In this document: piece after piece, positions 3,021 to 28,954 of the stretch
How the letters are laid out: the number at the start of each line of letters is the position of its first letter
Numbering within the stretch: the stretch's first letter is position 1
Origin: a virus
Lineage: Duplodnaviria > Caudoviricetes
DNA length: 64,000 nucleotides
Direction: 5' to 3' (one strand)
IMG/VR virus record: IMGVR_UViG_3300002053_000034
Span: 566-64,565 of that record
The notes under the pieces: model-generated
The model's input: only the letters and a program-made list of their open reading frames with translations
What the model was told of the DNA's origin: nothing
Database searches by the model: none
Program-made: the position numbers and the translations under genes

Positions 3021-3027
3021 ATCCTCC

Positions 3028-3979: not shown

Positions 3980-3980
3980 A

Positions 3981-4391: not shown

Positions 4392-4396
4392 ACTTA

Positions 4397-5002
4397 TTAG
4401 TCCTCCGTAGTGTTAACTTTAGTTATTTCCAGCGCGCTCGAGGCCTTCGGTTCTTCTTGCTGACCTAAAGGGTGAATGCCTTTAAATGCATCCGGAGTAA
4501 CTTCCAGAGGAACAGTTACTATATCTGTAGCGGCTTTCGGCTCATAATCTATGATTCTATCTCTAAATTTCTCTCTTGCTGTACTCGCCGGTTTAACTAT
4601 ACCTGTAACAACTCCCCATCGCTCGGGCGGATTAACACCGTCCTTCCATGTTTTTAATCTTCTATCTATATTCTGCCCTTCCAATATCGACAACTTATCC
4701 CTGCCGGATATATTAAGCATTACTTTAGATACATCGGTTCGTATCGGGTTTATTGTAGATCTCTCTATCAAACCAGTAAAAATGGGCTTTTCTTCCCCCT
4801 CTAAGCCAGCTCTAATAGTAACGACAGCATCAGTTACAGTTCTTAGATCTGAATAGAGTATTTTCACACTAGCATTAAAGTTAGCAGACATTTGAGTCCT
4901 AGCTCTATTAACAGTAAATGATACCACATTAGGAGTTGTTATATCACCTATTCCTGCTATACTTATAATAGCCCTTATTTTTTGTTTCTTTATTGTTGCC
5001 AT
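4397..5002 (-). CDS. baseplate-hub-like tail protein (gp27/GpD N-terminal-like)
   Basis: Pattern VVSFTVNR...IFTGLIE...LNISGRD typical of hub N-terminal barrels; post-TMP position. Confidence 0.5.
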   Translation of the reverse strand: MATIKKQKIRAIISIAGIGDITTPNVVSFTVNRARTQMSANFNASVKILYSDLRTVTDAVVTIRAGLEGEEKPIFTGLIERSTINPIRTDVSKVMLNISGRDKLSILEGQNIDRRLKTWKDGVNPPERWGVVTGIVKPASTAREKFRDRIIDYEPKAATDIVTVPLEVTPDAFKGIHPLGQQEEPKASSALEITKVNTTED

Positions 5003-5004
5003 TA

Positions 5005-13200: not shown

Positions 13201-16200
13201 CCATATTCACCGAATGCTCTGCTAATAAGTTGTTCAAAATTAAATTGTCCAGGTAAATAACTAATAGGTTCTCTAAGTGTAAGAGCTTCTCTAATAAATC
13301 TCTGAGGTGAAGGAAGTGTGGGAATTTCCCCTTCAACTATTCGGCGTGCTCTTCGAACACCAACTGCACCTACTAACTCCCTAGATTGCTCAGTTATAAT
13401 TGTATCAATAGATCTTACAGTTTCGTTGTTGCCACGCTTTTCTGCCAAATTTCTCAATTTAATTAAATTATCAAAACCTCTTTTTATATTCTCAGATATC
13501 TCTGTAGTTCCCAACACACCTCTAAATCTATCTCTAGTTCGAGGAGATTTCAACAAATCAATGCCCGTAGCCAATGACTGACCCAATTTCTCAGCATTTC
13601 GTAATGTAACAGCTTGACCTTTAGGGTCTCCTAAAGCTGCTAACATATCATGTAAACTTTCCACTGTATTAGAAGTATTTTCTTTAATACTTTCTTGCAA
13701 CTTTATCTGTTCTCGTTCACCAGGCGATATTCCCTTTATTACAGATTCAGTTATGCTTTGAAGATCCTCTCTAGGCACAACTATACCCGTAGCTCGAGCT
13801 TGCTCCGCTATTATACCTACTTGAGTTCTTGCACGAAGTACCTGCTCTAATTGATCAGCAAGCGTTTGTCTTCGAAGCTCTTCCGCAACTATCTCTCCTC
13901 TAAGTCTAGTAAATGTCCTTTGCTCAGGAGGACGCGCTCGTTCTACCACTAATTGCCTTTGTTGTGCAGTCAACTCGAAAAAGTCCCTAATTCCCAGATT
14001 CAAATCGGTAAATGCTTCCGGTATATCTCTTAATAAACCTGCAGTCTCCCGCAACGCCTCATTCCTAGCCTGCTCAACAGATATATTTTCTTTCAATACT
14101 CGGTTCGATTCAGATAAAGATTTATTCAAATCCACATAAATAGACGCAAACTGTGCTACTACTTGATTATTCTTTATAATAGTAGCAAATCTAGTTATCT
14201 CTTCCTCCAATCCTTTAGTAAATCCCTTATCGGCCTCTAGTCTACGTCGTGCTTCTTCCACAAACTGTTTTAATTCTTCTTCCGGCTTTACTAAATATTC
14301 TCGAATAATATCTCTAAAACCTATTCCTAAAAGATTAGCCTGAAATGGTACTCTACCTATTCCTCCGGGACCACCTCTTCCTGGCAAATTATAACCTATA
14401 GGAGTTTGAATTAAGGTTTCAGTAGGTATTTGTTCGAAGAATCTAGCCCCTAAACCAAATTCCCTTCTAAACTCTTTATCACCTATGGCTACTATACCAG
14501 CCGCAGCCCCTACCAACTGCTCTCTTAGTATGTCAAGATTTTCCGTAAGTTGATCAGCTATTTTAGTAGCTGGAAAAATAGATTCTACGAATCGACGTAC
14601 AGATTCAAAAGGAATTTCTTTAACAGTTCGAAGTTCTCTATCTATAGCCTCTACAAAAATTCCTAAACCATCTCTATATTTTAGGATACCCTGCCTACCA
14701 GCGATATCAAATTGTGTATCTATTTCGTCAGAGAATAAAACAATATCTCCTACGAAGGCTTTTTTGGTTCTCTGAAGAATACCAGCTTCTCTAAATAATT
14801 CTTTCGTTAGCTCAGCCGCATAATCAAAACTTACATCTGGCTCTATTCTCTTTAGTATCTCTATACCTAAAATGTCTTTCCAATTTATCCTACCTTGATC
14901 TCTAAGCCTCTTCAATCGACCTTCGAACTCTACCATCAACTCAAATGCAGGTTGTAAATCTTCCCGATCTAATAGACCTCTTATCTGAGCTGCTCCCAAT
15001 CCTCTAGTCTCAAGGCCGCCCAGTATTCGCCTAAAATCACTATAGAATCCTCTGAATCTTTCCCTCGCATCCTTTAATCTCTGATTATATTCTTTGAACA
15101 ATTCATCAAAGGCAGTGCTTAAAGGAAAATTCTCCCTAGCAGCTAATATCTTATTTACATCGGATACTGCTTCTCTTAGTTCCTGAGCCGGCGAAACTTT
15201 TATTTGTTTAGCAATGACGGGCCCGATACCAGGAATTTCTTTAACAAATTTGCGCAATTCAGACCTAAACTTAGCCGATGCACTTCCAGCATTTGTCAAT
15301 TCTTCTGCAAATTTCTCTAGCGCTTTAACTTCTGTCTCCGCTATCGCTCGGATTTTGGCTTCCCGCATAACCGTGAAATATTTTTTCAAATTTGCAGTTG
15401 GCTTAACGACAGCATTGCCAAATTTATCGAAACTATCTATTAACGAAAGATTAACCGCTGCCAACTGATTGCCCAAATCCCTGGACTGATCATAAGCTCT
15501 TCCTGCAGCTAATACAGGACTCACATACTCTTCTCTACGTATAGCCCTCTCCATAGCTTCAGGATCCCTAGCTTTGTTGGCCGCATCTATACTGCCTTGC
15601 AATCTATCATAACTAGTAGCTAGAGAATTTATATCGGCTAATTCACTACTCCTTAATCTCCTTAACCCGGACAAAGATTTTTCATAATCATCCGCTGATA
15701 ATGCGAGTCTCTTAAGAGCATCTCCTGTTTTACCAGATATAGGTATCAATGCGGCTATCGATCCAGCCAGTGGACCTATAGATTTAACAAAACTAGCATT
15801 TTCTTGGCTCCATCTAGCAAGAGCTTCAGCTGGTATACCAAAGAGTTCAGCTAATTTGGCCAATCCTTTTTCAGCTTGTTTAGATCCAGTTGCCAATGTG
15901 GTTATTATCCCACCTAATACTGGAGATCTAACAGCCGTTCTAAGTCCTAGTGTAGCTAAACCACCACCCAATTTTCCAAATGCCTTTGACAATGTTTCAG
16001 TAGTAGCTGTACCAGTATAAGCTATCTCGGACATAACCGAGTTCCAACCACGCCCAAATTGAGCTATCGCATACCCGGCTTTACCCAATACAGATTCAAA
16101 ATCCTGAATACCCTTGCCTACTTCAGTTATTGTAGATAAACCAGTTGTGTCTATATTATCAAGAGCTCTAGGTAACTTACCAAATATTTCAAATATACCT

Positions 16201-19200
16201 ATCTTGAATTGTTTTGCAAACTGTGCACCAAAATCACCAAATACATTAGTAAACCCTCTTATCCTATCTATTATGCCTGTTACTAATGTCTGTCCCTTAG
16301 CTATTATAGCAAATAATCCAGCGAAGGCTACTGCAGCAATCTTTATACTATTAGGTATATTAGCTAAAGTTTCTAATATGGTTCTCAAACCGGTTAACAA
16401 CCCTTTAGCTACCGGTAGTGCGAATCTTCCAAACTGGACCTGTAACTCAGCGAGAGCTCCCCTGACCTGCTGCAACTTCTTAGCGTATGTATCCATCACT
16501 ATCTGATTACGCCGTTCAGCAGCGCCTTTCGAGTTCAAACTATCATTAAGAGTTGTAAGAACATCATTCCAATGATCCATTAAAACAATCAAACTATTAA
16601 AATGCCTTCGACCACCAATAGCTGTAGCTATACTTAATCTCTGGGCATTAGTTAGATCAGTCCACACTACTGCCAAATCTTGAAATATATCAAAAGCACT
16701 TCTAAGTTCGCCAGTTTCGGCTATAACAGGTATTCCAATCTTAGCGAGCTCCTTAGGGCCTTTCTCAGCTTGTATACGTCTAAATATAAATCGCAAAGAT
16801 GTACCAATTTCCTTACCAGTTTGACGTGTAGTCTCACCAATTCCTGTTACAATGGCATTGAACTCGTCAAACGTGACTCCGGAAGTCTTAGCCACTGCGG
16901 CAGCTTTCTTTAAAGCATTAGCTAAATCGCCCGATGTAATAGCATGCCTAGCTTCAACCTCAGTCCACGCATCTAAGAATCTTACTGTGGATTCTCCTTC
17001 CTTTGCATATACTCTAGTAGCAGCAGTAATAGCCTCGGTAGCATCAGTAGCGGTCAAAGTAGTGGTATTTGCGGCCAGCATAGAAGTTCTAGTTCTATCA
17101 ATAACTTCAGCTTGCGCCAAACCTTGCTGCGCAAATACTCTCATAGCATCAATTACTTGTCGAATAGGTATACCAAACTGTTTCGCAAAATCTAATGCTT
17201 GATCAGTCAATAGTTGGAAATCGGTTTGTAATGGGCTCATAACCTGGCGTAATATTGCTATACCAGATTCCACATCCGCAATAGTATTGACCATGCCCTG
17301 CAAAGCATTTATAAATCCATAAACGGATCTACTAGCCAATCCCCATCGTATAACCCTACCAAAAGCTTGCCCTAATCCTCGTCTAGATTGAAAAGATTTT
17401 ATTAAATCTTCCGTCCTTTGTGTAAATATCCCTATTTGGTCTCCACTTTTCGAGCTAGTTTCTCCTATCTTTTTAAACTCCTCTGCTAAACTAGACAAAG
17501 TTTGTTTTGTTGCAGGATCTACTATCTTATATCTATAAGTGAAAGCCCGGCCTCTTCCAGGACCACCAGCAGCCTCTGGAGTCTCAAAATATTTTTGTAC
17601 TTGGGCTATATTTCTTCGGTGAAGAAGTTCTTGTGTTTGAGGATCTAAGAACGAAGGTACTCCTGCTAATCCCAGTGGCGAAGCTTCCACTCCTCCAGGA
17701 GCAAACATTGTTTCGATTTGTCTTAATAATTTAATAGTATCTTCTACATTTTTACGAATAGGTTCAGTATAATCTGTTCCTCCGCCGAAAGCTCCGATCT
17801 GCAACCTATTATAAGCCTGCAAAGCCGCCCTTAATTCAGTTATTCCCTTGGTTAATGCAGCGAAATCCCAAGCTTCCAAAGCTTGATCTCCAATTCGCCT
17901 AAATTGGTCAGCATCTTCTAATATAGCTTTAAGATTAGGATCCTCTTTTGCCAATAATCTGAAGGCGGCTTGAACTTTCTGCAACGGACTAGCTATTTGA
18001 TCTAATTGAGTAGGATCTAAATCCCCCACTAATATATCTATAATAGGCTTCAATTCACCACGTAAGGGCGTGGTCTGGGTAACCAGCTCTTCCAATTGAG
18101 CTGGCGTTCTATAAATACCTGTCAACCTTGCTAGTTCTGGATCTACAAATGCAGTTTTTTTACCACTTGGTCCTATCTGTGTGTATATATCACTTAATCT
18201 ACCAAGTGTTCCCCTAATGTTAGCTAAGAATCTCTCAACTGTTTGCTCGTACTCTATAAGCGCTCGCCTACCTGCGGGCGTACCAGCCTCCTTTTCTATT
18301 TCCTCTTTAAGAGCGTCTAATCTCTTTAAGAAGTATTCACTTACAGAGCTTTTATAATGCATCCAAATTCTTCGCATCCCTCCTCTTTTTTCCGGAGGAA
18401 GTTGAGTTATGGCATCACTGATCTGTCCAGTAATATCAGCAACTGGACCTTTTTCAGCTGCCTCGCTTAAAAGTGAGGCTATTTCGGGTCCAAATTTTTG
18501 TATCTCCTCATCACTAGCTAATCTATGTACACGCAGCGCTGCTTCATACAAGGCTCTCAAATTTTTATGGAGAGCTTCAGGAGTATCGGGGTCTATTCTT
18601 TCTATATCCGGCATTCGTAGTCTAGCAAACCCAGTTTCAGCAGCACCTGTTCTTCTAGCTTCATTCAATTTCTGGTACAATTGATAGATTTCTCTATAAG
18701 ACTCTTCGCTAGCTCCTATACGCTGTATAGCGGCTCGAATATTATTAACTAAATCTTCAAGAGCACCTGCAAGAAGCGTATCCCCTCTTTCTCTAGCAGC
18801 TAATATACCTTCAAGGGCCTCGTCCAAAGTTTGAATTAACTTATATATATCTGGAACTTCTGGCTTTATACCTCTTTCTATTCTAGCGAGAATTTCCTGA
18901 ATGCGTTTTCTAAGTTCCTCATCATCAAACCCATCGCCCGGGCCTCCTCCAGCGCCGCCAGGGGGCGGTGGTGGTGGGGGCGGAGCGGCAGCTCCAGCAC
19001 CAGCCGCAAACATCAATCTAAGTGGCCTTTCTGCGACTCCAGGTCCTCCTAAAGATTGATATATACCTAGATATTCCCTACTTATTTTATCGAATAAACG
19101 ATCCTGCTCTTCCGTTAGTCTATCTATTATCTCTTTAGATGATCTCTGCACTTCTCCAATAGGGCGTGTAGGCAATTTTCTTAGAAATTCTTCCGGGCCA

Positions 19201-22200
19201 AGTTTTTCTAATTCTTTGGAAACATAATCATATATCTTAGGCACATCCGCAAATAATTCTTTGGGTATAACCTGACCAGATTGTATCAAAGCTAATAATT
19301 TAGTTACTCTGGTTCTGCCTTCCTGTATAATAGCTAAGTCTCTTTTGAATCTTGTAGGATCAAATTCACCAATAGGGATTGTAACTTCTCTCTTAGGATC
19401 AAAAGTGCTAACTACGACTAACTCTCCTACGGCATCCTCTACTCCACTCAAATATATGTTAACCTGACTAATATACTCCTCTAATCGCCTAATAACATTC
19501 TTTTCTAGTTGTGAGGTAGGTTCCTGAGCTTTAAGTTCATCGAGTTTTTGTTGTATGGTTATATTACGTTCTTGTACTTCATCTGCAATTTCTTCCAGCC
19601 TTTTAAACTGAGCTGTGCTATAAACAGTCTTGACGTCAGCAACTATCTTTCGACCCGCCTCTTCATACAGAACGTCTATATGTCCAGTAATTCTATTTGC
19701 CAAGTCTTCTATGGGCTTTTCTATCTCAGCTGTTGGGTATTTAGCTAAGAATTCTCTTTGTTTACGTCTATGTAGTGCTGTTCCACGTAGACTAGTAGCT
19801 TCAAGCAGAAACTCGGCTCCTTTAGGAGCACCCAACATTTCCTGCAATATACTTTCTAATTGTGTGCCACCACCATAACCTCCTCCAGCATGCACGGCAC
19901 TAGCTCTAAATATTTCGTGCAGAGGCACTTCCCCCGGAGCAGCCGGGCCAGCAGCACGTCCTTCCAAATATTTTAATGCGTCCCGCTTTCTTGCTATAAT
20001 AGACTCATCTATAGCGGTAGTCAACTCGTCCGCTGCCGCAGCTGTAGTTTTCTTTAATTCTTCGCCTGCGGTTGTGGCGGGAACTCTAAAAGTCCTTACA
20101 GCATCACGCAATTCATTAGTACGAGTAGTAGGAAATGTCTGTTTGTGCCAATTCTCGATAGCTTTTGTGTAGTCATCAAATCTCTGTACCGCATCCATTT
20201 GCGCGGTCGCAATTCGAGTTGCTCCCTCTTCAAATTTAACATCTGGAAAAGCTGCTTCCAAATATTTTCTTTGCTCGGGAATAGTTTTTATTATTTCAGT
20301 AACTCTACGCAACTGCTCTACAACACTAGCCTGAAAAGCTATTGCCTCTTGAGCTGCTGTAGCTAGTTCGCTAGCTCTATTTTCCAATTCTTCCGGAACA
20401 ATTTCTTCACCTTTAGTCAAAGCTTCTTTGGTAAGAACGTCCTTTATAACCTCAAAAGGTCTTATACCATACTTTTCTATTGTCTCCCGCCCTATCAGAG
20501 CTTCTTCTTCTGGGACTAGAGGCTTCAATCCAGCCAATTTAGAAATTTCAGCAACTCTACCCCGCACTATTTTTTGGGTCTCTGTTAATTTATTAAAAAA
20601 TTCTTCAAGATTCTCCATCTGCGGGATAGGTCCTAATCGACCACCACCTAAGCCAGTAATCGCTCCAGCCTCTTGGAAGACTTTCACAGCAAGTTTATTA
20701 GCTTCTATAACATCTGTAAACGGCAAAGCAAATTTACCAACTACTTGTTGTGATTCCTTACCCAATTTTTCTAATTCAGATAATTCTCTATAGCGCTGTT
20801 CAATGGCACTAGTAACAAGTAGTCCATGAACACCTCTTCGAGGGCCCCTAGCGGTTTCCGACAAAGCTTGTGATAGTGCGTGAGCTGCTTTTTGCGTATT
20901 CTCAAAATCTCTAGATAGTTTTTCTGCTCCGGCTTCGGGCAACGTCAGTGCGGTCGGTTCAATTTTTATACCTGTCCTAGAAGCAGCAGTGGCTAACGTC
21001 TCCATACTGGTGCGCATCTTATATAGTGGTTGTAGATTAGTCGTTACATGCTTCTGTATTGCGATTCCAGTTTCAGAAGCATATTCCTTAGCTATCTGCT
21101 GGGCTGCGAATCGTTCTACACCGCCAGCAGCTTGTACATCTCTTAGTAAGCGCACTTTTCTCGGACCAGTTGGTAATTCCGCTATCTGTCTTTCTAACTG
21201 TTTCGACAACCCAGCGACCGCTTGTCTCTGTATTTGTCTGCCAAGCTCTTCAAATGTAGCTATTACATCAACATGTTTTATTATGCGTTGTATAATTTCT
21301 TCTCTACTAATCCCTGTAAGTTGACTAATATCTACTTCGGGCTCAAATCTCTGCAGTTCTCGCATTAATTCATCAGTAGAAAATTTACCCAATCTCAATC
21401 TAACTTCATTAGCTATCTGATCGTTAAAATCAAGTAACTCATCCCACTGGTCTTTAGCAGCGAGCATCGCTTCTCTAATAAATTCTGTTCCACCTCGTTT
21501 GCCTATATTAGCTAATATTTGTTGCCCAACTGCTTCAACACCCGCATGTTTTACATCCATCCCCTTTTGGATCACAAACCGCATTATTTCATTTACGCGG
21601 GTAGCAAACTCTTGGACCGGCCTGCCTCCTAAAGCAACACTTTCTTGTGGAAACCTCTGCAAAAATTCTGGAGCAGGTCTAGCTCTTCTGCCTGTTCCAG
21701 CTAATCCTCTCCCAAAACCCGTTTCAAGTTCGGATATTCTAGCTATCCGGCTTATACCTTCCACAGTTTGGCCTGTATGCAATTTATATAACTGCCCGGT
21801 TATAGCATCAGCATAACGTTTTTCCCATAACTGGCGTCTCACTAAATCTTCGCTTAACTTACTTATATTTCTCTCAAGAGCAGTAGTCGTCTCAGTCACT
21901 TCCGGAAGTGCGGTAGGAGCAGCTCCTATTCTCCCTCTGTAAGCAGCCGCGGTAGGCTCATCGACCCCTAATCGAGTAAATACTTCTGGTAATATTTCTC
22001 TCACTACAAAATCTTTAGACCAATCCCCAACCGCCTTTTGCCACTCCTCAGTTCCTGCTTTTAACTGACCAGCACCAGTAGTATAAGTAAATAACGATTC
22101 AAACACTTTGCTCAAATCTAAATTTTTAACTTGTTCTCTTAAGTACGGCTGTGTTAGAAATTCAAATCCTTTTTCGGCTGGATGTTTTTTACCAAAAATA

Positions 22201-25200
22201 ACTGCCATTTCGGCTAGAGTAGCAACATCGGTTTCTTTCACCGCGGTAAACACAGACCTAAACAATGACCTAACTCCAGTAACATCGTCGGCCAAAGCTT
22301 CAAAATGTTTCTTTATTTCTGCTCTTGACTCTTCTAGTTGTCCTGTATGAACAAATAACGCATCACCATCAAAATCTAGTTTCTGCTCTAAATTAGTGAA
22401 TGATGGAGAGGCCGCATTTACTATTTTTAACAGCCTTTCTATAGCTTCCGTCAGATGGCGAGCTTTTTCGGCAGCCATCTCTGTTCCTTCTGCCCAAGCT
22501 CTTTCTCTTCGTTCTAACAGACTTAATGTTTCTTCCGGTAAATACTGCCTTTTAGCTCTAGGAGTTACCCCTATAAACTCACGCAGCGTGTTAACTACTC
22601 GAACAAGGTCGCCTATATCTCGGCGCTCTTCTGGGCGACCAGCTCTAGCAAATCCCGGAGCACCAGGAACAGCTACACCATATTTACCTAGAGACTGTTC
22701 TAATAATCTAGCTCTATGAGGCTGAACACTCAAAGTCCCAGTAAATGGGTATCGTATAGATTCTACAAATGTTTCACTCTGTTTTTGAATAAGGTCTGCT
22801 AAAGTAGTTTCAATCTCATCTTTAATTCCGGTTCTAACCTTTATTTTTGCAGCCATTTCAGGCGGTAGACCTATTTCGCCTTCTTTTAATACAGGTAACC
22901 CTAATGTTCTAGCTTTAGTAACGTATTCAGAATGGGCTTCTGAAAGCTTTTCCAAATCCTCTACTAACATAGGTAATCCCGGGATCTCCAGATCCACTAT
23001 ATATTTACTTCGTAATTCCTCCAAAAGGTCTTTCAGGTCTCTAGTTTTATCAGCTATAGCCGATATAGCTTTGCCAGTAATTGCTGGGGTTACTCTTTGG
23101 AAGAAAACCTCTTCGATTCCTTTTTTCTTACCAAATACACTTTCTCCCAGCTCCCTGAAATAAGCTACTCTGGCTTTACCTAAAGTTTCTTTGCGCTTCT
23201 CTAGAGCTTCTTTTAAGGATTGTTGGATACTAATACCCACCCTATTCGCAAACTCATCTAAATTACCTGCTTCCAGCTCAATATCAAATACAGTCTCTAC
23301 CTTACCACGCTCTTCGGATCTTCTTTTAAATGTTTCTAGCATAGCTTCAAAATCACCACCAAAACGCTGTAATATGTTTTGATAATATGGAGCCTGGAAT
23401 CTCTGTGGTATCTGCCCACCTGTTTCTCTATATGACTTAAGGGCTGCGTTTATTTCATTGATATCCTTACGTAAAGAGGCAGGGTCAGGTCCAATTAAAA
23501 TATCAGCTATTCTACCTACTATTTTACTAAATTGTCCTTGATATTTGCGCTCAAATTCTTCGACTGCTCCTCTTTCAGTAGTAGCCATGCCCTCTTGGTA
23601 AATAGGTGCTACCTCTCTTGTTTCAGACAGAGCCTGTTTAAATCTATTAATAGTCTGCTGCATAAATTCAACGTTTTGTGGGGTGGGCCCAACTTTCTCT
23701 ATCTGTTGAAATCTTTTTATAGTATCAGTCAAACTTTTAGTTAGTTCAGCTCTTATGGTCGTAGCAAATTTTCGTTGAAATTCCTCACTTAAACCTATAC
23801 CGCCCTGCGCAGCGGCTGATGCTATTTCTTCTACCTCTTTAGCGGCATTCACTAAATTATCTAGATATCTAGCAATATTTGTAGGAGCTTGGGCACCAAG
23901 AAGTTCTTCCTGATAGGTTCCCCTCAAGGCAGGTCCAGGAATATATAATTCTTCATAAAATTCCTTAGCGCCCTTCGCAGTGGAAGGTATTCTAAGTTTG
24001 AAAGGGGTAGGGAATTTACCTATATCAAAGATTGTTCCCTTCAATTCTTCTACTGTACCAGTAGCTTTTTCAAACGATGCAACATCTCTTAGACTTACAG
24101 TACGTAATCCTTCGGTTAATGCCTTATTCACATCCTTCATGGCCGGGTCTAACATTTGAAAGGCTCTAAGCAATTCCCACCCTTCTTGAGCAGTTAGAGC
24201 TGTAGACCTAGCCAGTTCTTCCATCATTTTAGAACCTTCGCCAAATACGCCGGCCATTGCAGCAAAAGATTGAAAATCTAATCGAGCCCCTTTCAACCCT
24301 TTTTGAATTTGTTCAGGAGACCATTCTGGGTACAAATGGGGTTCTTCAATAATTTGTAAAAATTTAGGTGCAACAAATGATTGCATTTGTTCCCCAAATT
24401 CATTAACTACATCGGTATAGACAGAAAACTGAGCTTCAAAATCCCTCAACTTTTTAATAGTATCAGGATCTATGTCAGGTTTCTCTAATTTTAACCGACT
24501 AATAACACCATCTAAATCTTTGAATGGTTGGTATCCCAACTCTCGTAAATATTCATTTAATTTTTTTCTAGCTTCTCTTGTTTCAGTTAGAGCACCCCTA
24601 GATATTTCATCACTAAGAGTTGTAGCTCCAGCAGTGGTTCCTATTAGATTATTAACAATACCTTCTAATATTTCGGGCATCAACCCTCTTTTGGCTATAC
24701 CACGAGAGCTGATTCTAGCTTCAATAGGCCTAACTTCAAATAATTGTTCCTCTCCAAAAAGAGCAGCATAACGCTCTCTAATAAAACGTATGGCTTCTGA
24801 TGTCTCCTTAGGTAATTCCTCACCAAAAACCTTTTTAAACGCTTTGGTAGCGTTCTCAAACACTACTTGTTGCTTTTTAGCTTCTTCTTCGGTCACTAAT
24901 CCAAGTGACGCATCCCTAAATAAGTCTATAACAAATTTATTTCCTGAATCTATTAATTGTCTTGTTAAACTTTCTAGGACTTCGCCACCGAATATATCGA
25001 TTTCGTCCGCTTCTTGCGCAGCCCGAGTTTCAATGTTATTAAATATTTCAATCAATAATTGGCCCACGTTTTTAGGCAGTCTAGCGACACCCAATCCTGG
25101 CCCTGGTGCTACACCAGCTTTAAACCCTTGCTGAATAAACCTACCAACATCCTCTAACGAGGTGATTTCTTTAGGAAGTTCCCCATATCTTGGAGTAACC

Positions 25201-28200
25201 GATACCCCTTTGGTGCCGAACCTAGTAGATAATTTTCTTCCGAAATAATTTAAGAAAGTTTCAGTCAATTTAGCTGTTTGTACTTCAATAGTTTGTCCTC
25301 GGTGCTCTCTAATCAAATTTTCAACTTCTTTAGATATCTCAGCTATATCTGCTCTACCTCTGTATCTTTGTGGGACACCCAATATCTCTTGAAATTGATC
25401 AGTTACCTCTGACAGAACTCTCTTAAATTCTTCTTCGCTTCGAGCTCTTAATCTAGCAGCTCTAGGCGTAATTTGCTGCACTCCGGGCTCTATAGCGGTT
25501 ATTCTTTTAGCTTCTTCTAAAGTTTCAGCCGGCTTAACCAATCTACCAGTTATTTGGGTGAAAGCTTTAGCCAAGCGACCTGATATGACTATCTGGTCCT
25601 CAAATGTCTGAGCAGTATTTCTTAGTTCAGTTAAAACATTAAGTCCAGTTCGAGCCTGTCCATATCTACCAGCTTCCATAATTCTCTGTTCTCTAGCACT
25701 CAAAAGAGCCGGAGCTTCAAATTGACCTCCACCAGGAAGGCCGCCAGCTAAAGCATTCGACACATATGAAAGCTGTCTCTGTATAGAACTGAACTCCCTA
25801 AAAGGAGCAGCTGCTCTAATATCCGCCAAACTAGCCCCAATAGCAGTTTTATCAAGGGCCTTTAAATTAGTTACCATATCTTCATTGAATTGTTTCAATT
25901 TGGAGCTAGCTGCATCACTTAAATCCAAAGATGTGGCTAATGGCCTCCCCAAATATGGTTTGCCTGCGAACAACCCTTCTTGTAACTTTCCGGCACGCTC
26001 GGTTAAATCTTTCAACAAAAGATTGACAGCTACTATGTGCTGCTTTTGCTCTTCGGGTCTAAAACGCCCTTCCATTGCTTTAGTAAGAATCTTTAAGGAT
26101 TGTTCATCATATAGTCGGCGTTTCGGTCTACCTGGCTCAATTAAAGGTTGAAGTCCTAGTAGATCATTTATTGTGCGGGAAACTTCCCGCATATTGCGAT
26201 CAAACCTTACGATATTTGCAGCTTGTTTTTCTAAATAAGGGACCTTCCCAGCTTGCAACATTTTATCCAATATATCATAAAAGTTCTCAAAAGATAGCTC
26301 ATCTAATGCTCTCGCTGCATCTAGAGCACTCACTTTAAGTTCATCAGCTTTCTTTAATAATTCATCTAAAGTTTGGGTAGAACCTGCGAATATCCTAGCC
26401 TGCTCTTCAGTAAATTCACCGCGTTCAAGTCCTCTTAAAGCTATAGCCCGCTTATACCCAGTAGCTACTTCAGCTCTACCACCAAGCTCTATTACTTTTT
26501 TGACCAAAGTAGCGGCTAATTTTTCAGCTTCCGCTTCAGCTACAGTACCAGCAGTGGGGCGCAAAGGTGCTTGAGCTACCTGGCGCATTAACCGCTCAAC
26601 CTCTATAGTGGCTCCTCCTAAATCTCTTAGTTCCTGAGCTAATTTTTCTAAACCGGTAGTTACTGTTACAAAATTAGCTAGCGCTCGCTCAGCCCCATAT
26701 TTGGTAGGAATAGATACTCCTCCCTCCGGCCCTATTCTAGCCGCTGGGACAGCTAATCTTTTTATAAAATCCTGCATTAATTGCCGCTGAGCTTTAGCTT
26801 CTAATGCCACGCCCTTAAACAGATCTGTCAGCTCAGGACGCCTAGCTATCTCGCCTACAGTAGTTGTCTGTTGTTTTATCGCCTTAAATAAGTCTTCTAC
26901 TTGACGACCCATGCTTCTAGCCATCTCGGCCGTTAAACTGCCTACTTCCTTATAGACCGCTTCAGCCATAACTTCAGGACTACGAGCCACACCTAATTCA
27001 CGTCTCACAAAAGCCCTTTTAAATGTATCAATTAATTCATTAGCTGTAGCTTCTGGGGATGCAAATTCTCTAAACTCAGCTGCCAGCGCTTGTCTTAATC
27101 CTCGTACATCCACTATCTTCAATTCCCACTCAGCTTGACCCGGCGCAAGCTGAAATGCTTTGCCCGCCTCATCTTTCAGAATTTCGGCGCCAGAACTTAA
27201 TCCTTTCTCTAAAGATTTAATTATATTATTCTGCAACTTGTCTAAAGATTTGGCTAAATCGCCTAACAAAGCGGCTGTTTTTTCACTTCTAGCTGCCCCT
27301 ACAGGACCTGCTATAGCAAAAGGCTCAGCGACTGGCTGAGGTCTAACTACTTGAGGCCTAAATATGTTAGCTTGTATAGTTGATTTTATCTTAGCTAAGT
27401 CATCTATCTCAAGAGTGGCTTTATGAAAAGACTGGCCGGCTTTACGCATATATTCTTCCGTCTCTGCCATCGTTTCTGATAACAAGTCGGATCCAGCAGC
27501 CATTTTGTCCATCTTTTGAGCAGCAAACTTCATGCGTTTGGCAGCATCACTAGTAGCTCGCTCAACGGTAGCCGATATATTCGATAATGTGTGTGACAAA
27601 TCAGACTGGGCAGCCATCAATTCTTTTATACTACCATCTAACGCTCTCAAAAGGGTGATAGTTAGCTCCACATCGTAAGAAGCGTCATGCAAACTACCTG
27701 TAAGATTCTTAGTTTCTACACCCGCCAATTTGAAGTCTTTTTCAAATGATTCCAATGCATAAGGTTGCCGCCTCGTAGGTGTGCTTAATCTCTGGGGAAA
27801 TTTCTCTCTAGCCAAGCGTAGAGTGTCTATAAATTTGTCTGTTTCAGCTTCTATTTTAATTCCCGCTCTTTGAAAATGCTGTTCCAAAACGCCGATATCA
27901 AACTGAGCTATGTTATGCCCTATAACGGCTTCAGCATCTTTTAATACATCAGCTACTTTTTTCATAGCTTCAGTAGCCTCGATACCCTCTTTTTTCAATT
28001 TTTCGAAAGGTATCGGATCAGCTTTTCCGATATTACCTATAAGTCGTTTATATTGAGCTTCTGTTTCAACTCCTCTAGGAGGCCTAACGAATACTTGGCC
28101 ACGCTCTCCCTTGCCGGCTAATATCTGCTGCAATGTACCTTTCTGGTAAGCTATCTGGCTCACAAATTCAGCGGCCACTTCTTTGCCGATTCGCTTAGCT

Positions 28201-28892
28201 TCGGAAGTTTCAATATCTAAGGCTACCACCATCTTGTCTTTTAATTCTCTCTTTATCTTTTCAAACTCTGTTCCCATATCTTTAAGAGCTTTACCAAAGA
28301 GCTTTATATCTCTGTCCAACTCCGGATTCCTAATCCTTCTACCACCAGCAGTTGGGGAAGCTCCTACAGATTTAGACAGATCCTGCACAGACCTATTAAG
28401 ATCATTAATAGATCGCGTTTGTTTATCAATCAGTTGCTGAAGCGCTCTCTCTATATTCTTTAAAACCGTTTCTCTACCGGTTTTATAAACCTCGGACCGC
28501 TCTATGCGCTTGTAAACATTTACCAGACCTCTAATAGCATCTACTAACTCTCGATCACGAGGATCCCTTGCCTCTCTAGCCACCTCTCTACCAGCTGACA
28601 CAACCTTCTTGATAGCGTCTGGTACATCCTTTAAGTTCCTTAATTGTTGTAGAGTAGTTTCTAACTTAGCCACAGATTTTTGCAAAGCATCCAGTCTTCT
28701 AGTATTCAAATCGATGGCCGCCACATTAACTCCACCAGCCTGGGTTGAAGCAGACTTCTCCAACACTCGTTCCAAATTTTGGATTCGGCGAGTTAAAGTG
28801 ACAATCTGAGTAGCTAAGTCTTTTATAGGTTTCTCAGCTTGTGTATTCTGTATTTGTTCTAGTTGGATTTTATAAGTATTGACTGGCGGCAA
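7221..28892 (-). CDS. giant tape-measure polyprotein (7,223 aa): DEDDh exonuclease + two-barrel RNA polymerase (beta and beta' motifs) + PD-(D/E)XK nuclease + TP901-type tape-measure domain + zincin
   Basis: TTG start with AGGAGG SD; canonical TMP position after tube and chaperones; TP901-type core around aa 3840-4170 (DAMRVFAQQG...LANALKKAAAVAKTSGVTFDEFNAIVTGIGETTRQTGKEIGTSLRFIFRRI); TMP C-terminal motifs GPGGPREDKVPILASPGEYII and AMVHRGEAIIP; DFDGD at aa 2173-2177. Confidence 0.92.
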   Translation of the reverse strand: MPPVNTYKIQLEQIQNTQAEKPIKDLATQIVTLTRRIQNLERVLEKSASTQAGGVNVAAIDLNTRRLDALQKSVAKLETTLQQLRNLKDVPDAIKKVVSAGREVAREARDPRDRELVDAIRGLVNVYKRIERSEVYKTGRETVLKNIERALQQLIDKQTRSINDLNRSVQDLSKSVGASPTAGGRRIRNPELDRDIKLFGKALKDMGTEFEKIKRELKDKMVVALDIETSEAKRIGKEVAAEFVSQIAYQKGTLQQILAGKGERGQVFVRPPRGVETEAQYKRLIGNIGKADPIPFEKLKKEGIEATEAMKKVADVLKDAEAVIGHNIAQFDIGVLEQHFQRAGIKIEAETDKFIDTLRLAREKFPQRLSTPTRRQPYALESFEKDFKLAGVETKNLTGSLHDASYDVELTITLLRALDGSIKELMAAQSDLSHTLSNISATVERATSDAAKRMKFAAQKMDKMAAGSDLLSETMAETEEYMRKAGQSFHKATLEIDDLAKIKSTIQANIFRPQVVRPQPVAEPFAIAGPVGAARSEKTAALLGDLAKSLDKLQNNIIKSLEKGLSSGAEILKDEAGKAFQLAPGQAEWELKIVDVRGLRQALAAEFREFASPEATANELIDTFKRAFVRRELGVARSPEVMAEAVYKEVGSLTAEMARSMGRQVEDLFKAIKQQTTTVGEIARRPELTDLFKGVALEAKAQRQLMQDFIKRLAVPAARIGPEGGVSIPTKYGAERALANFVTVTTGLEKLAQELRDLGGATIEVERLMRQVAQAPLRPTAGTVAEAEAEKLAATLVKKVIELGGRAEVATGYKRAIALRGLERGEFTEEQARIFAGSTQTLDELLKKADELKVSALDAARALDELSFENFYDILDKMLQAGKVPYLEKQAANIVRFDRNMREVSRTINDLLGLQPLIEPGRPKRRLYDEQSLKILTKAMEGRFRPEEQKQHIVAVNLLLKDLTERAGKLQEGLFAGKPYLGRPLATSLDLSDAASSKLKQFNEDMVTNLKALDKTAIGASLADIRAAAPFREFSSIQRQLSYVSNALAGGLPGGGQFEAPALLSAREQRIMEAGRYGQARTGLNVLTELRNTAQTFEDQIVISGRLAKAFTQITGRLVKPAETLEEAKRITAIEPGVQQITPRAARLRARSEEEFKRVLSEVTDQFQEILGVPQRYRGRADIAEISKEVENLIREHRGQTIEVQTAKLTETFLNYFGRKLSTRFGTKGVSVTPRYGELPKEITSLEDVGRFIQQGFKAGVAPGPGLGVARLPKNVGQLLIEIFNNIETRAAQEADEIDIFGGEVLESLTRQLIDSGNKFVIDLFRDASLGLVTEEEAKKQQVVFENATKAFKKVFGEELPKETSEAIRFIRERYAALFGEEQLFEVRPIEARISSRGIAKRGLMPEILEGIVNNLIGTTAGATTLSDEISRGALTETREARKKLNEYLRELGYQPFKDLDGVISRLKLEKPDIDPDTIKKLRDFEAQFSVYTDVVNEFGEQMQSFVAPKFLQIIEEPHLYPEWSPEQIQKGLKGARLDFQSFAAMAGVFGEGSKMMEELARSTALTAQEGWELLRAFQMLDPAMKDVNKALTEGLRTVSLRDVASFEKATGTVEELKGTIFDIGKFPTPFKLRIPSTAKGAKEFYEELYIPGPALRGTYQEELLGAQAPTNIARYLDNLVNAAKEVEEIASAAAQGGIGLSEEFQRKFATTIRAELTKSLTDTIKRFQQIEKVGPTPQNVEFMQQTINRFKQALSETREVAPIYQEGMATTERGAVEEFERKYQGQFSKIVGRIADILIGPDPASLRKDINEINAALKSYRETGGQIPQRFQAPYYQNILQRFGGDFEAMLETFKRRSEERGKVETVFDIELEAGNLDEFANRVGISIQQSLKEALEKRKETLGKARVAYFRELGESVFGKKKGIEEVFFQRVTPAITGKAISAIADKTRDLKDLLEELRSKYIVDLEIPGLPMLVEDLEKLSEAHSEYVTKARTLGLPVLKEGEIGLPPEMAAKIKVRTGIKDEIETTLADLIQKQSETFVESIRYPFTGTLSVQPHRARLLEQSLGKYGVAVPGAPGFARAGRPEERRDIGDLVRVVNTLREFIGVTPRAKRQYLPEETLSLLERRERAWAEGTEMAAEKARHLTEAIERLLKIVNAASPSFTNLEQKLDFDGDALFVHTGQLEESRAEIKKHFEALADDVTGVRSLFRSVFTAVKETDVATLAEMAVIFGKKHPAEKGFEFLTQPYLREQVKNLDLSKVFESLFTYTTGAGQLKAGTEEWQKAVGDWSKDFVVREILPEVFTRLGVDEPTAAAYRGRIGAAPTALPEVTETTTALERNISKLSEDLVRRQLWEKRYADAITGQLYKLHTGQTVEGISRIARISELETGFGRGLAGTGRRARPAPEFLQRFPQESVALGGRPVQEFATRVNEIMRFVIQKGMDVKHAGVEAVGQQILANIGKRGGTEFIREAMLAAKDQWDELLDFNDQIANEVRLRLGKFSTDELMRELQRFEPEVDISQLTGISREEIIQRIIKHVDVIATFEELGRQIQRQAVAGLSKQLERQIAELPTGPRKVRLLRDVQAAGGVERFAAQQIAKEYASETGIAIQKHVTTNLQPLYKMRTSMETLATAASRTGIKIEPTALTLPEAGAEKLSRDFENTQKAAHALSQALSETARGPRRGVHGLLVTSAIEQRYRELSELEKLGKESQQVVGKFALPFTDVIEANKLAVKVFQEAGAITGLGGGRLGPIPQMENLEEFFNKLTETQKIVRGRVAEISKLAGLKPLVPEEEALIGRETIEKYGIRPFEVIKDVLTKEALTKGEEIVPEELENRASELATAAQEAIAFQASVVEQLRRVTEIIKTIPEQRKYLEAAFPDVKFEEGATRIATAQMDAVQRFDDYTKAIENWHKQTFPTTRTNELRDAVRTFRVPATTAGEELKKTTAAAADELTTAIDESIIARKRDALKYLEGRAAGPAAPGEVPLHEIFRASAVHAGGGYGGGTQLESILQEMLGAPKGAEFLLEATSLRGTALHRRKQREFLAKYPTAEIEKPIEDLANRITGHIDVLYEEAGRKIVADVKTVYSTAQFKRLEEIADEVQERNITIQQKLDELKAQEPTSQLEKNVIRRLEEYISQVNIYLSGVEDAVGELVVVSTFDPKREVTIPIGEFDPTRFKRDLAIIQEGRTRVTKLLALIQSGQVIPKELFADVPKIYDYVSKELEKLGPEEFLRKLPTRPIGEVQRSSKEIIDRLTEEQDRLFDKISREYLGIYQSLGGPGVAERPLRLMFAAGAGAAAPPPPPPPPGGAGGGPGDGFDDEELRKRIQEILARIERGIKPEVPDIYKLIQTLDEALEGILAARERGDTLLAGALEDLVNNIRAAIQRIGASEESYREIYQLYQKLNEARRTGAAETGFARLRMPDIERIDPDTPEALHKNLRALYEAALRVHRLASDEEIQKFGPEIASLLSEAAEKGPVADITGQISDAITQLPPEKRGGMRRIWMHYKSSVSEYFLKRLDALKEEIEKEAGTPAGRRALIEYEQTVERFLANIRGTLGRLSDIYTQIGPSGKKTAFVDPELARLTGIYRTPAQLEELVTQTTPLRGELKPIIDILVGDLDPTQLDQIASPLQKVQAAFRLLAKEDPNLKAILEDADQFRRIGDQALEAWDFAALTKGITELRAALQAYNRLQIGAFGGGTDYTEPIRKNVEDTIKLLRQIETMFAPGGVEASPLGLAGVPSFLDPQTQELLHRRNIAQVQKYFETPEAAGGPGRGRAFTYRYKIVDPATKQTLSSLAEEFKKIGETSSKSGDQIGIFTQRTEDLIKSFQSRRGLGQAFGRVIRWGLASRSVYGFINALQGMVNTIADVESGIAILRQVMSPLQTDFQLLTDQALDFAKQFGIPIRQVIDAMRVFAQQGLAQAEVIDRTRTSMLAANTTTLTATDATEAITAATRVYAKEGESTVRFLDAWTEVEARHAITSGDLANALKKAAAVAKTSGVTFDEFNAIVTGIGETTRQTGKEIGTSLRFIFRRIQAEKGPKELAKIGIPVIAETGELRSAFDIFQDLAVVWTDLTNAQRLSIATAIGGRRHFNSLIVLMDHWNDVLTTLNDSLNSKGAAERRNQIVMDTYAKKLQQVRGALAELQVQFGRFALPVAKGLLTGLRTILETLANIPNSIKIAAVAFAGLFAIIAKGQTLVTGIIDRIRGFTNVFGDFGAQFAKQFKIGIFEIFGKLPRALDNIDTTGLSTITEVGKGIQDFESVLGKAGYAIAQFGRGWNSVMSEIAYTGTATTETLSKAFGKLGGGLATLGLRTAVRSPVLGGIITTLATGSKQAEKGLAKLAELFGIPAEALARWSQENASFVKSIGPLAGSIAALIPISGKTGDALKRLALSADDYEKSLSGLRRLRSSELADINSLATSYDRLQGSIDAANKARDPEAMERAIRREEYVSPVLAAGRAYDQSRDLGNQLAAVNLSLIDSFDKFGNAVVKPTANLKKYFTVMREAKIRAIAETEVKALEKFAEELTNAGSASAKFRSELRKFVKEIPGIGPVIAKQIKVSPAQELREAVSDVNKILAARENFPLSTAFDELFKEYNQRLKDARERFRGFYSDFRRILGGLETRGLGAAQIRGLLDREDLQPAFELMVEFEGRLKRLRDQGRINWKDILGIEILKRIEPDVSFDYAAELTKELFREAGILQRTKKAFVGDIVLFSDEIDTQFDIAGRQGILKYRDGLGIFVEAIDRELRTVKEIPFESVRRFVESIFPATKIADQLTENLDILREQLVGAAAGIVAIGDKEFRREFGLGARFFEQIPTETLIQTPIGYNLPGRGGPGGIGRVPFQANLLGIGFRDIIREYLVKPEEELKQFVEEARRRLEADKGFTKGLEEEITRFATIIKNNQVVAQFASIYVDLNKSLSESNRVLKENISVEQARNEALRETAGLLRDIPEAFTDLNLGIRDFFELTAQQRQLVVERARPPEQRTFTRLRGEIVAEELRRQTLADQLEQVLRARTQVGIIAEQARATGIVVPREDLQSITESVIKGISPGEREQIKLQESIKENTSNTVESLHDMLAALGDPKGQAVTLRNAEKLGQSLATGIDLLKSPRTRDRFRGVLGTTEISENIKRGFDNLIKLRNLAEKRGNNETVRSIDTIITEQSRELVGAVGVRRARRIVEGEIPTLPSPQRFIREALTLREPISYLPGQFNFEQLISRAFGEYGIREVIQELEKAAGPTPEELKRGEIIRAYRTAPRPRFGYEPGLAPPDIRYQRLTGSSQFRNVTKLLNEQNKISVASSKTLSQLFAAYGGFNEIFRQAAKREQRGYDVQVKQLREQQKGVVVRFRAGEIGQEEFRTQMRDIARQISEAVRAREEAGRTAQQRATREAVGLIASATTTFARSAGFSEKALNNLGKSAAASVIAWQAWSALTGEELPEAVKRATNALNEYAATGGSPASKLRVRAAAKAVEKLEKNQKDLLNAEEKDKIRRAKDLKLSEEDLRRGNEALKAVKEGDLKKLNESEKLSNINRDQLTTLLAIEENTRKSSEAAAEGKDATEGAAKDTAQEMEKPIESMTQSLRGKLDEIKQERLMGGGDVAARLKDLFAAATVVTAAGYLGEKTRLPAELGEARRRAERLNESFAKLAQAFPKEVEAAIKQLRERREAALARGGATLTEQRTRLLDVARAEQEFLDRLSEMAESIGISLDDVSTIIESKKDKLYVIGELSSIISKSIDNLIRDVSVSINNRRIEQQFRLGLTGELRGLPTFEEFQIGKLPHELSPTERLLKEGGTTYRQLYDSFNILQDIRERLIGALQENAQRLVASQVGFTVGTMGAKRTIEDTTRELEKEGLLGLTKEDPTKIFTLMRKEQRKIPLFREVARRSQEQFLSLPEDMQKAQRVGHTEALAAINRQIRESRKFIEEYTKVLSVVDVGKALKEQREKLARFREIGKQITEQWRKGLIDPDIYAKTIPKINKSVIEAREAISGFEELGPPSDFRKAIADLIDRTAIASEQLRIEAENHEHLARAAQEVNVLMSDLAQVFEVGLNIERVIGEFEQLKFNLRVDDLHREFANLADDILSRLRGGTHPLAPQFPTFAAVQAGVPPEQLFRMTRAQQRIAEIQFTQGRQPTIAELQQIRFEEHIGELRLKQTREDEKLRQQFQAVVSLDRQIQMERLRAVNIEDPRVRESLLSSYSEFRGQLRAALEEASQIVREVEPGILERRGIDFDALFEKLKELRVELPEGIAERFDPQRVIRELALGEQAPVVGAIEESNAILRSIETNTRGLTERLVPGFLREERRKRAIATAESFVAGVRGEAQTGGTITGPGGPREDKVPILASPGEYIIRASSANKLGKQTLDYMNTTGTLPSGRRDPADIVREVERELGYEPTREQRMRALRAQGEIIFGKSKEELDLLFGKGMGGKIPYRYVNGGPTIEAYEEMLAKRDPIIYNILKYKDPGEIRKPRGEFKVGSKYFSLDQIHEDIGEALIPFHGTTIGMTEGQKSEYLLNQTAKIADYLIGLGPASAERLALKRFTSTLYKDSVESVLRRGPSATKRFDKLVSKEATKSLANYLRPSGKISKAAPAIADLTESPLTIRRILEEGTAIRPDIGIGELRQHVDKLSRRFPTMKEYNFYFDELISTIGKGKTAQRFMSVADLRKAKLQLSQLAAGTKLHPVTSRRIGDIIFSRKPFSKQTIGSDAVRYSVGQFIPGARVPDPKQIKNILRLSTMDDSMAELAKNIRHEVKHNADYELRVLAAFAKKIGVEDPLLKQHVDTLKDIEFALGLVRKGKISERIFPRSGGMLNPMEAYATALEKPVSRLPLERRTVAKLLQQRARLQKESDAALETLGKTPTRAKLANHPMFESFRHKFGEAENAYRRQFKSAADVGIFFGEGLRGGGRIFRKYPLGGLIPYYQDGGKTIAEQINFGDPTLEKMIEFIKGLFRRKPSAESEELKRIKEIDRAIMEGRGSGGRIYKYQQGTPYVPVDQMAMVHRGEAIIPAQYNIGGLVKRHYQAGGAVSPSRVLQGIESAAEKFGEAVVRKLEDATINFNIPTEDQLPELKIDTSNLEGVLEGFSVGAAGISKIDQFIESTTEKLDRLEEQTVTNSEEIKMVETKASEMEGLERELRIAKEQLEMAYLETQRSTDFVEDRSYVNATINESISDLKSMDITPIRSRITSLELSISNLNRELEDQRVIILSNISRLDLRG

Positions 28893-28954
28893 GTGTCAGC
28901 CCTCCTATAGCGTATTAATAGCTAAAATTATTATAGAAGACCTGGCCTTGCCTT

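Follow-up and report, generated by a model that had tools for sequence, protein, structure and literature searches.

To our knowledge, the only published virion RNA polymerase (RNAP) fused to a tape-measure protein (TMP) is gp96 of Thermus phage P23-45. This protein of 5,002 residues contains an active RNAP in residues ~327-1124, with its DFDGD motif at 779-783, and proteins of the gp96 type also occur in phages P74-26, G20c and TSP4 (Chaban et al. 2024, PMC10770324; structures PDB 8H2N and 8H2M). In that paper, the gp96 polymerase is described as flat and clampless and is grouped with the clade of single-subunit phage enzymes and QDE-1, its small size, flatness and lack of a clamp being linked by the authors to passage through the tail. 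Fragments of gp96 were detected in virions (Fig. 1 legend of PMC10770324), and the fused enzyme makes pre-early transcripts, including the mRNA of a second polymerase; the virion gp96 and the non-virion gp64 are inferred there to be paralogs (section 12). Tape measures themselves are presented as parts of the virion which, on infection, exit the tail and pass into the envelope (section 13). Here, we analyzed a window of 64,000 nucleotides (nt) from the viral record IMGVR_UViG_3300002053_000034 (64,565 nt in total, 23% complete by CheckV), in which one giant open reading frame (ORF) encodes a tape-measure polyprotein of 7,223 residues. A first-pass annotation of this window had proposed that a single-chain β+β′ RNAP, arranged in the cellular order, is embedded in the tape measure, and had cited P23-45 as the precedent, which the paper above bears out.

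Our results support this proposal through fold matches to both halves of the enzyme, invariant motifs and a profile-level link to a family of compact phage RNAPs. As judged from models and alignments, the giant protein (P0001; an identical protein is already on record as P0002) contains a catalytically intact-looking RNAP as a covalent part of the TMP. Based on these models and on the analogy with gp96, residues ~543-2710 probably constitute a single-chain, two-barrel RNAP within the tape measure, which would be borne in the virion, injected and, like gp96, transcribe the first genes to enter.

For structure prediction, input sequences were drawn from relatives encoded at 30 + 48 viral and 77 metagenome loci. 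The AlphaFold2 (AF2) model of residues 543-1600 (model 2, 85 sequences) reached a predicted local distance difference test score (pLDDT) of 83.9 and a predicted template modeling score (pTM) of 0.76. Searched against the PDB with Foldseek, it returned 342 matches at E ≤ 1e-3 (best E 1.1e-7; 545-1,250 aligned columns), and the best 50 of these 342 were without exception RNAP β, Rpb2, Rpo132 or RpoB chains, coming from bacteria, archaea, eukaryotes and poxviruses. The wide VIA search (48,161 chains) placed RNAP second-largest subunits in all of the top nine ranks with Z scores of 13.1-16.4, falling to 7.5 at rank 10, the first unrelated chain; the Xanthomonas β subunit, for example, aligned over 415 residues, pairing model residues 1-979 with chain residues 33-1283. 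A second VIA look gave second-largest subunits in 50 of the 50 best rows (Z 15.8-16.9). The VIA alignments comprised 204-462 residues and extended over model residues 1 to ~980. Furthermore, 23 matches at E ≤ 1e-3 were found in BFVD, nearly all of them to viral RNAP subunit 2. The model resembles the multisubunit enzymes of all domains about equally.

The following region was covered by a second prediction spanning residues 1020-2219 (model 1, 35 sequences). RNAP largest subunits made up 13 of the top 22 chains in the wide VIA search (Z 7.8-9.9), among them Pol IV NRPD1 (Z 9.9), human Pol I (Z 9.8, 273 residues aligned), African swine fever virus (Z 9.4), Pol II (Z 9.4), Sulfolobus A′ (Z 9.2), vaccinia (Z 8.9), and M. 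tuberculosis β′ and AR9 (both Z 7.8). These matches map model residues 564-1197, corresponding to residues 1583-2216 of the protein, to subunit residues ~10-640. In the second VIA look, 49 of the best 50 rows were RNAP largest subunits and one was QDE-1 (Z 7.9-10.1, 173-287 residues aligned); the largest subunits aligned over 220-287 residues, within subunit residues ~10-670. Model residues 545-905 aligned to the archaeal clamp domain 3QQC with a Z of 8.8, which the tool grades as middling (root-mean-square deviation 3.3, 146 residues aligned), suggesting that a clamp is present. According to the two models, residues 543 to ~1600 are a near full-length homolog of β that abuts a homolog of β′ starting at residue ~1583. 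The two are thus predicted to be fused in the cellular order. Counting the conserved block up to residue 2710, the module is ~2,170 residues long. Its identity to cellular RNAP subunits in the structural alignments is 8-17%.

To follow conservation along the module, we used an alignment of 53 rows, consisting of the query and 52 relatives at 25-73% identity. Between residues 450 and 2800, 182 positions are kept in at least 90% of the rows, clustering in the motifs picked out by the first-pass annotation, all of which are indeed present in the translation at the residues and nucleotides where it had placed them. The boundaries it gave for the module (residues 1020-2500) were too narrow, since the conserved module extends over residues ~543-2710. 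Whole-protein BLAST against more distant members likewise yielded two conserved blocks, at residues ~540-2710 and ~3440-5460.

Within the β-like half, both acidic residues of TFEDQ, the counterpart of NFEDS, are kept in 51 of 53 rows each (E1098 and D1099). The segment GRKLSTRFGTKGV follows the pattern GRKxxTRxGxKGV and has a Lys-to-Lys spacing identical to that of its β counterpart GDKMAGRHGNKGV, with G1218, K1220, K1228 and G1229 each kept in 51/53 rows. A third conserved segment, PIEARISSRGIAKRGLMPEILE, contains the pattern PIxxRISxxGxxKRG (1389-1403), in which R1393, S1395, G1398, K1401, R1402 and G1403, as well as the subsequent E1410, are retained in at least 49 rows (R1402 in 51). In the β′-like part, RYPFTG keeps R2047, P2049 and G2052 in every row, and the segment carrying the metal-binding aspartate triad, KLDFDGDALFVH, is invariant at D2173, D2175, G2176, D2177 and H2182 (53/53). 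Further towards the C-terminus, the candidate trigger loop QKGMDVKHAG retains K2448 in 53 and H2449 in 51 of the 53 rows, and a conserved K2370..G2374..R2382 within residues 2220-2710 is a candidate bridge helix. Long helical insertions separate KGV from PIEARIS and RYP from DFDGD. The motifs are beyond chance and under selection. The triad in 53/53 rows, together with the lysines, the E-D pair and R2047 in 51-53 of 53, at identities down to 25%, is the signature of selection on catalysis.

Additional support comes from a family of compact RNAPs encoded by related phages. Each of five related records (161-269 kb, 61-100% complete) contains one TMP-fused polymerase, and a search of these records with profile A3 for a second TMP-like copy recovered only the TMP gene itself. 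Three of the five (G002, G003 and G004) encode a separate ORF of 1,085-1,178 residues with the Pfam families Rpb2_6 and Rpb1_2, matched at or just below threshold. In viral contigs, nine genes of this kind were recovered, and three of these share their contig with the giant gene. In profile comparisons with hhalign, TMP residues 864-1614 aligned to compact RNAP residues 109-593 (probability 98.5, E 1.5e-15) and TMP residues 1020-1687 to residues 225-689 (probability 98.8, E 8.9e-17), these β-half alignments comprising 431-474 columns; the β′ barrel (TMP 1902-2202) aligned to residues 700-842 (probability 81.9, E 1.1e-5). A single compact sequence compared with the TMP profile still gave E 7.4e-7. 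In addition, the PIxxRIS segment aligns to the matching motif of the compact family and RYPFTG to its RFPCLG, while residues 2220-2710 of the TMP show a weak profile match to compact residues 892-953 (E 0.034-0.098).

The link was also recovered by an open search. A HMMER profile of residues 543-1600, run over 1.84 billion representative proteins, collected 111 proteins at E ≤ 1e-3, mostly giant proteins or fragments of them, and included three members of the compact family (E 2.7e-6, 7.5e-4 and 8.8e-4); no cellular RpoB was returned at this threshold. The compact family itself aligns with hhalign to rpoB 1049-1120 (E 9.7e-5), and its comparison with rpoC gave nothing significant. The compact enzymes and the TMP module are thus alike in being homologous across the β half, the junction and the β′ barrel, with the same order of motifs, whereas the compact enzymes are about half the size, free-standing, contain 9-18 cysteines and reach or nearly reach Pfam thresholds. 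From these sequence relationships, we regard the compact RNAP as a paralog of the TMP-embedded module and, by analogy with P23-45, as a candidate non-virion polymerase. Four distant giant proteins (P0114, P0119, P0124 and P0136; 4,331-7,339 residues, 0-1 cysteines) match the β-like profile at E 7e-62 to 3e-10, and for the first three BLAST gives direct matches to compact RNAPs as well (E 1e-8 to 1e-14). These proteins may be intermediates between the fused and compact families.

The fusion of polymerase and tape measure recurs among the relatives. A word-indexed search with residues 1000-2600 returned 53 proteins of 4,042-7,998 residues at 27-100% identity, and the tape-measure family PF10145 lies in the same protein as the polymerase module in 52 of the 53 relatives, which come from separate assemblies. 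Nine public runs hold nt 17500-21500. Contigs of four of these runs cover nt 9000-28950 in 30 of 30 bins without joints, one contig spanning 17707-28950 and another bridging 16739-18921; two of these four may derive from the source sample itself and so do not count as independent. The first-pass annotation had named a coverage break between the RNAP and TMP parts as the mark of a chimeric assembly, and no such break was seen. Since four runs and 52 of 53 relatives keep the polymerase-TMP architecture, the fusion is not an assembly chimera. As a separate observation, the giant gene is interrupted in two related viral contigs (L020/L057, which are one contig, and L073), where the longest frame covers part of the polymerase; the interruption may reflect an error in sequencing, a frameshift or a gene that is truly split.

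We then compared the module with gp96. Both are two-barrel RNAPs with a DFDGD motif that precede the tape-measure core within a single giant ORF and have the β-like barrel first, and in both cases a second, paralogous polymerase is encoded elsewhere in the genome, here in three of the five related genomes and with a candidate non-virion role. However, the gp96 RNAP comprises ~800 residues and is flat and clampless, while the module described here comprises ~2,170 (~2.7x as many) and is predicted to have full β lobes and a clamp-like region. Unlike gp96, it starts at residue 543 after an exonuclease domain and is followed by a second nuclease-like domain, and its relatives belong to phages of 230-270 kb. 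Sequence kinship to gp96 was not detected by tblastn against 50,697 phage records, and hhalign against gp96 residues 1-1200 gave E 0.05 near DFDGD and E 0.13 in an unrelated stretch. The gp96 structures 8H2N and 8H2M are not among the best rows of any fold search, which is no evidence that the folds differ; gp62 of P74-26 (8F5M) was matched once, in the VIA search with model 1 (Z 6.6). Because the module is larger, matches the whole of β including the lobes, has a clamp-like region and lacks detectable kinship to gp96, sequence and models together indicate a separate, second lineage of this type of fusion, which is larger, predicted to bear a clamp and free of cysteine.

Other systems are related in different ways. 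With cellular RpoB/Rpb2 and RpoC/Rpb1, the module shares the predicted fold of the whole of β and of the N-terminal half of β′, as well as the collinear fork, NFEDS, GDK..NKGV, GKQGRF, CGLPKKMA, NRAP and NADFDGD motifs; the cellular subunits are separate and contain zinc cysteines, whereas here they are fused within a virion protein and carry long helical insertions. The RNAPs of jumbo phages, such as the non-virion enzyme of phiKZ (7OGP and 8QUE) and that of AR9 (7S00), are among the best matches of the β half (Z 15.5-16.9). They are likewise phage-encoded enzymes of the cell type and come in virion and non-virion sets, but consist of several separate subunits with no fusion to a tail protein. 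By description, gp66 from phi14:2, a crAss-like phage, and YonO of the Bacillus prophage SPbeta also hold both barrels in one polypeptide. Sections 11 and 13 of PMC10770324 describe gp66 as virion-delivered and part of a very large protein; unlike the module here, neither gp66 nor YonO is part of a tape measure. A description of the present family was not found in the accessible parts of the full-text literature, including PMC7481178 and PMC7824862, and the supplementary alignments or survey of PMC10770324 might list it. As far as searched, the family is new to print.

A further peculiarity of the fused enzyme is its amino acid composition. The giant protein has no cysteine at all in 7,223 residues and its 53 relatives have 0-3 each, while 18 other ORFs of the window contain 52 cysteines in 7,534 residues and the compact RNAPs 9-18 each. 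This absence fits a protein that is stored and threaded in a non-native state through an oxidizing compartment and then refolds.

The layout of the giant protein is summarized in the table below. The exonuclease domain preceding the polymerase was recognized by Pfam (PF00929 at residues 306-414, E 1.7e-8) and by PHROG 192 (E 3.4e-17) and PHROG 403 (E 7.9e-14), both labeled 'DNA polymerase exonuclease subunit'; among precomputed annotations, PF00929 appears in just 12 of the 53 relatives. The catalytic β′-like barrel contains a helical insertion of ~90 residues. Beyond the polymerase, the Cas4-like segment matches PHROG 1706 ('CRISPR/Cas system associated', E 1.2e-5). The tape-measure core is matched by PF10145 (E 2.7e-26; 93.1 bits, the cut-off being 33.2) and by PHROG 4211 ('tail length tape measure protein', E 8.1e-73), and in residues 2501-5000 there are 18 PHROG families labeled tape measure protein at E ≤ 0.01.

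Positions of the giant tape-measure protein and its predicted domains and motifs in the window, and of compact RNAP genes in related records
Feature	Residues	Nucleotides	Strand	Basis
Giant tape-measure polyprotein P0001, one ORF	7,223 in total	7221..28892	minus	7,223 codons without interruption
DnaQ/RNase T-like 3′-5′ exonuclease domain, upstream of polymerase	~206-464	27501..28277	minus	Pfam, PHROG
β/Rpb2-like half (lobes, fork, hybrid-binding barrel, C-terminal clamp part)	543-1600	24093..27266	minus	AF2 model, Foldseek, VIA
TFEDQ, counterpart of β NFEDS (E. coli 811-815)	1096-1100 (FED 1097-1099)	25593..25607	minus	alignment, hhalign
GRKLSTRFGTKGV, counterpart of β GDKMAGRHGNKGV (E. coli 1063-1075)	1218-1230	25203..25241	minus	alignment, hhalign
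PIEARISSRGIAKRGLMPEILE, conserved β-barrel motif	1389-1410	24663..24728	minus	alignment
N-terminal half of β′/Rpb1-like part (clamp-like region and catalytic barrel)	~1583-2219	22236..24146	minus	VIA
RYPFTG, counterpart of β′ NRAPTLH	2047-2052	22737..22754	minus	alignment
KLDFDGDALFVH, metal-binding aspartate triad	2171-2182 (DFDGD 2173-2177)	22347..22382 (DFDGD 22362-22376)	minus	alignment, hhalign, Pfam
Conserved C-terminal part of polymerase module	2220-2710	20763..22235	minus	conservation only
QKGMDVKHAG, candidate trigger loop	2442-2451	21540-21569	minus	conservation
Cas4/PD-(D/E)XK-like nuclease segment, between polymerase and tape-measure core	~3027-3098	19599..19814	minus	PHROG 1706
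Tape-measure core domain, in TMP-like region ~3800-4600	3897-4094	16611..17204	minus	Pfam, PHROG
Compact RNAP loci, in records of 228-269 kb; also L258-L266		L254:1715-5020; L255:1835-5089; L256:2001-5534	-; +; +	

Near the C-terminus of the giant protein, an HEVKH motif (residues 6756-6760, nt 8613-8627, minus strand) marks a candidate zincin peptidase; scans of the giant protein gave no supporting Pfam or PHROG family for this region. The giant gene sits in a late structural block beside tail genes, and the minus strand on which it lies carries nearly all of the window's long ORFs. GC skew is negative throughout the window (1-64000). Ten neighboring ORFs scanned against PHROGs comprise a large terminase at 51022-52740 and otherwise three weak matches to families of unknown function, and a partly overlapping set of ten ORFs gave one sub-threshold Pfam match (DUF1947, E 0.0081, at 48795-50738). 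These scans of neighboring ORFs do not distinguish between a tail with and a tail without a sheath.

Several results weigh against reading the module as a working polymerase delivered by the virion, and the first group of them concerns sequence. On the giant protein, RNA_pol_Rpb1_2 (PF00623) matches residues 2172-2195 at E 0.03 and 15 bits, and its gathering cut-off of 25.3 bits is missed (15.0-18.4 bits). The Rpb2 domain 6 family (PF00562) shows no match in the protein at E ≤ 0.1, nor in the whole record at E ≤ 10. When the members of alignment A3 were scanned singly, 23 of 37 matched PF00623 at E ≤ 1 (best 2.4e-4) and 3 of 37 the runner-up family, a weak signal in favor of an RNAP. A phmmer search of the PDB with residues 1000-2600 found no RNAP, its sole match being apolipoprotein (E 0.071), and in hmmsearch of the PDB neither alignment A1 nor A3 recovered a polymerase, the best match being a kinesin coiled coil on the helical insert. 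There was no tblastn match in 50,697 phage records, and an ESM Atlas look-up of residues 1900-2640 returned only viral clusters without names, whose recognition stayed under the mark set by the tool.

Direct profile comparisons were made with hhalign against E. coli rpoB, alone or as a profile of 71 gammaproteobacterial sequences, and likewise against rpoC of the E. coli type. For rpoB, the top match paired TFEDQIVISG with NFEDSILISE (β 811-824, E 0.13), followed by GRKxxTRxGxKGV with GDKMAGRHGNKGV (E 0.15-0.21). For rpoC, GKKgsI..F.R was aligned to residues 324-347 (E 0.37), PVLKxxEiGIPxxxA to PYLRLHQCGLPKKMA (residues 359-373, E 0.2) and DFDGDxxxVH to residues 460-479 (E 0.005). These top local matches are the very motif pairs of the first-pass annotation, are collinear in both rpoB and rpoC and, like the PF00623 matches, speak for an RNAP. 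Nevertheless, they comprise only 13-24 columns and at E 0.005-0.37 none is significant alone, and a comparison of residues 2220-2720 with rpoC gave no match to the bridge helix or trigger loop. No sequence method puts the module over a curated RNAP threshold.

The second group concerns structure and chemistry. Model 1 has a pLDDT of 72 and a pTM of 0.41, with the loops of the catalytic motifs all below a pLDDT of 50, and its Foldseek search of the PDB gave no match at E ≤ 1e-3; rank 47 was a designed double-psi barrel (7DWW). The β′ Z scores of 8-10 are modestly above the tool's noise level of 7-8. No single confident model holds both barrels or shows them facing each other, and residues 2220-2710 lie outside both fold models. 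The zinc-binding cysteine clusters of β′ are gone because the giant protein has no cysteine. In addition, K2171 (nt 22380-22382, minus strand; 49/53 rows) replaces the Asn of the cellular NADFDGD. In the compact paralog, DFDGD is preceded by Gly-Leu, Gly taking the position equivalent to K2171, and the lysine in place of Asn may bear on sugar or substrate selection. As to the two-polymerase scheme, the compact RNAP was matched neither in G001 (89% complete) and G005 (61% complete), which are two of the five related records, nor in the 64.5-kb record of the window (23% complete). Finally, a clamp-bearing enzyme of ~240 kDa would be hard to pass through a tail tube.

In the interpretation we favor, the polymerase would be carried by the virion within the tape measure, enter the cell envelope or cytoplasm by ejection upon infection and, anchored near the entry pore, transcribe the first-entering phage genes without the host polymerase. 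These genes would probably include that of the compact non-virion polymerase, which would then take over. By analogy with P23-45 gp96, virion delivery and early transcription are plausible. Transcription drives genome entry in T7, and this precedent is relevant to a reading that we consider rather unlikely as the main role, in which the predicted enzyme is active but its main job is mechanical or priming: tethered at the pore, it would pull in the 230-270-kb genome by transcribing it or synthesize primers, with DNA ends being processed by the exonuclease and PD-(D/E)XK nuclease that flank it. Such a role would draw the same support from the intact catalytic motifs and would suit the two nuclease-like domains covalently flanking the polymerase as well as the very large size of the related genomes; it is not distinguished here from early-gene transcription, with which it would be compatible.

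Phages commonly process polyproteins during morphogenesis, and it is conceivable, though distinctly improbable, that the polymerase module is cleaved away ahead of tail assembly or in its course and works solely as a non-virion enzyme in the producing cell, without injection. The candidate zincin motif near the C-terminus and the difficulty of fitting a folded ~240-kDa enzyme in the tail tube speak for such cleavage. However, a gene in the late structural block would be expressed at the wrong time for an enzyme needed early, relatives already have a separate compact RNAP, and the purge of cysteine is specific to the TMP-fused copy; moreover, gp96 fragments were found in P23-45 virions, as reported in PMC10770324. 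Even less probable is an exapted, inactive polymerase fold serving as bulk, ruler or plug in the tail. It would account for the family scores staying below threshold and for the loss of the zinc sites and of the Asn of NADFDGD, but is hard to reconcile with the triad kept in 53/53 rows and the two lysines, E-D pair and R2047 kept in 51-53, despite identities down to 25%. That the module is an assembly chimera or a chance motif match has a negligible probability in view of the single ORF holding polymerase and PF10145 in 52 of 53 relatives from independent assemblies, the 111 representative clusters among 1.84 billion proteins, the joint-free contigs from four runs (two of them without a flag as possible source) and fold matches reaching Z 16.

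Returning to a polymerase delivered with the tape measure, a broader scenario can be proposed, tentatively and with odds well short of even. The fusion of RNAP and tape measure would have arisen at least twice, here from a duplication of the phage's own compact polymerase. The fused enzyme would be threaded unfolded through a very long tail and refold at the inner membrane, where, as a pore-anchored motor, it would reel in the 230-270-kb genome and make the first transcripts, while the flanking nucleases would act on entering DNA or on host nucleic acids.

The same fusion, apparently built from a different and ~2.7x larger polymerase, points to a recurrent strategy rather than a curiosity, and members of the family make up about one hundred protein clusters of uncultured large phages. 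How a tail can store such an enzyme and let it through becomes a more pressing question. For enzymology, the family offers a predicted natural RNAP of the cell type that is single-chain, zinc-free and cysteine-free, and the pair of fused and compact paralogs may provide material on how a polymerase adapts to delivery by the virion.

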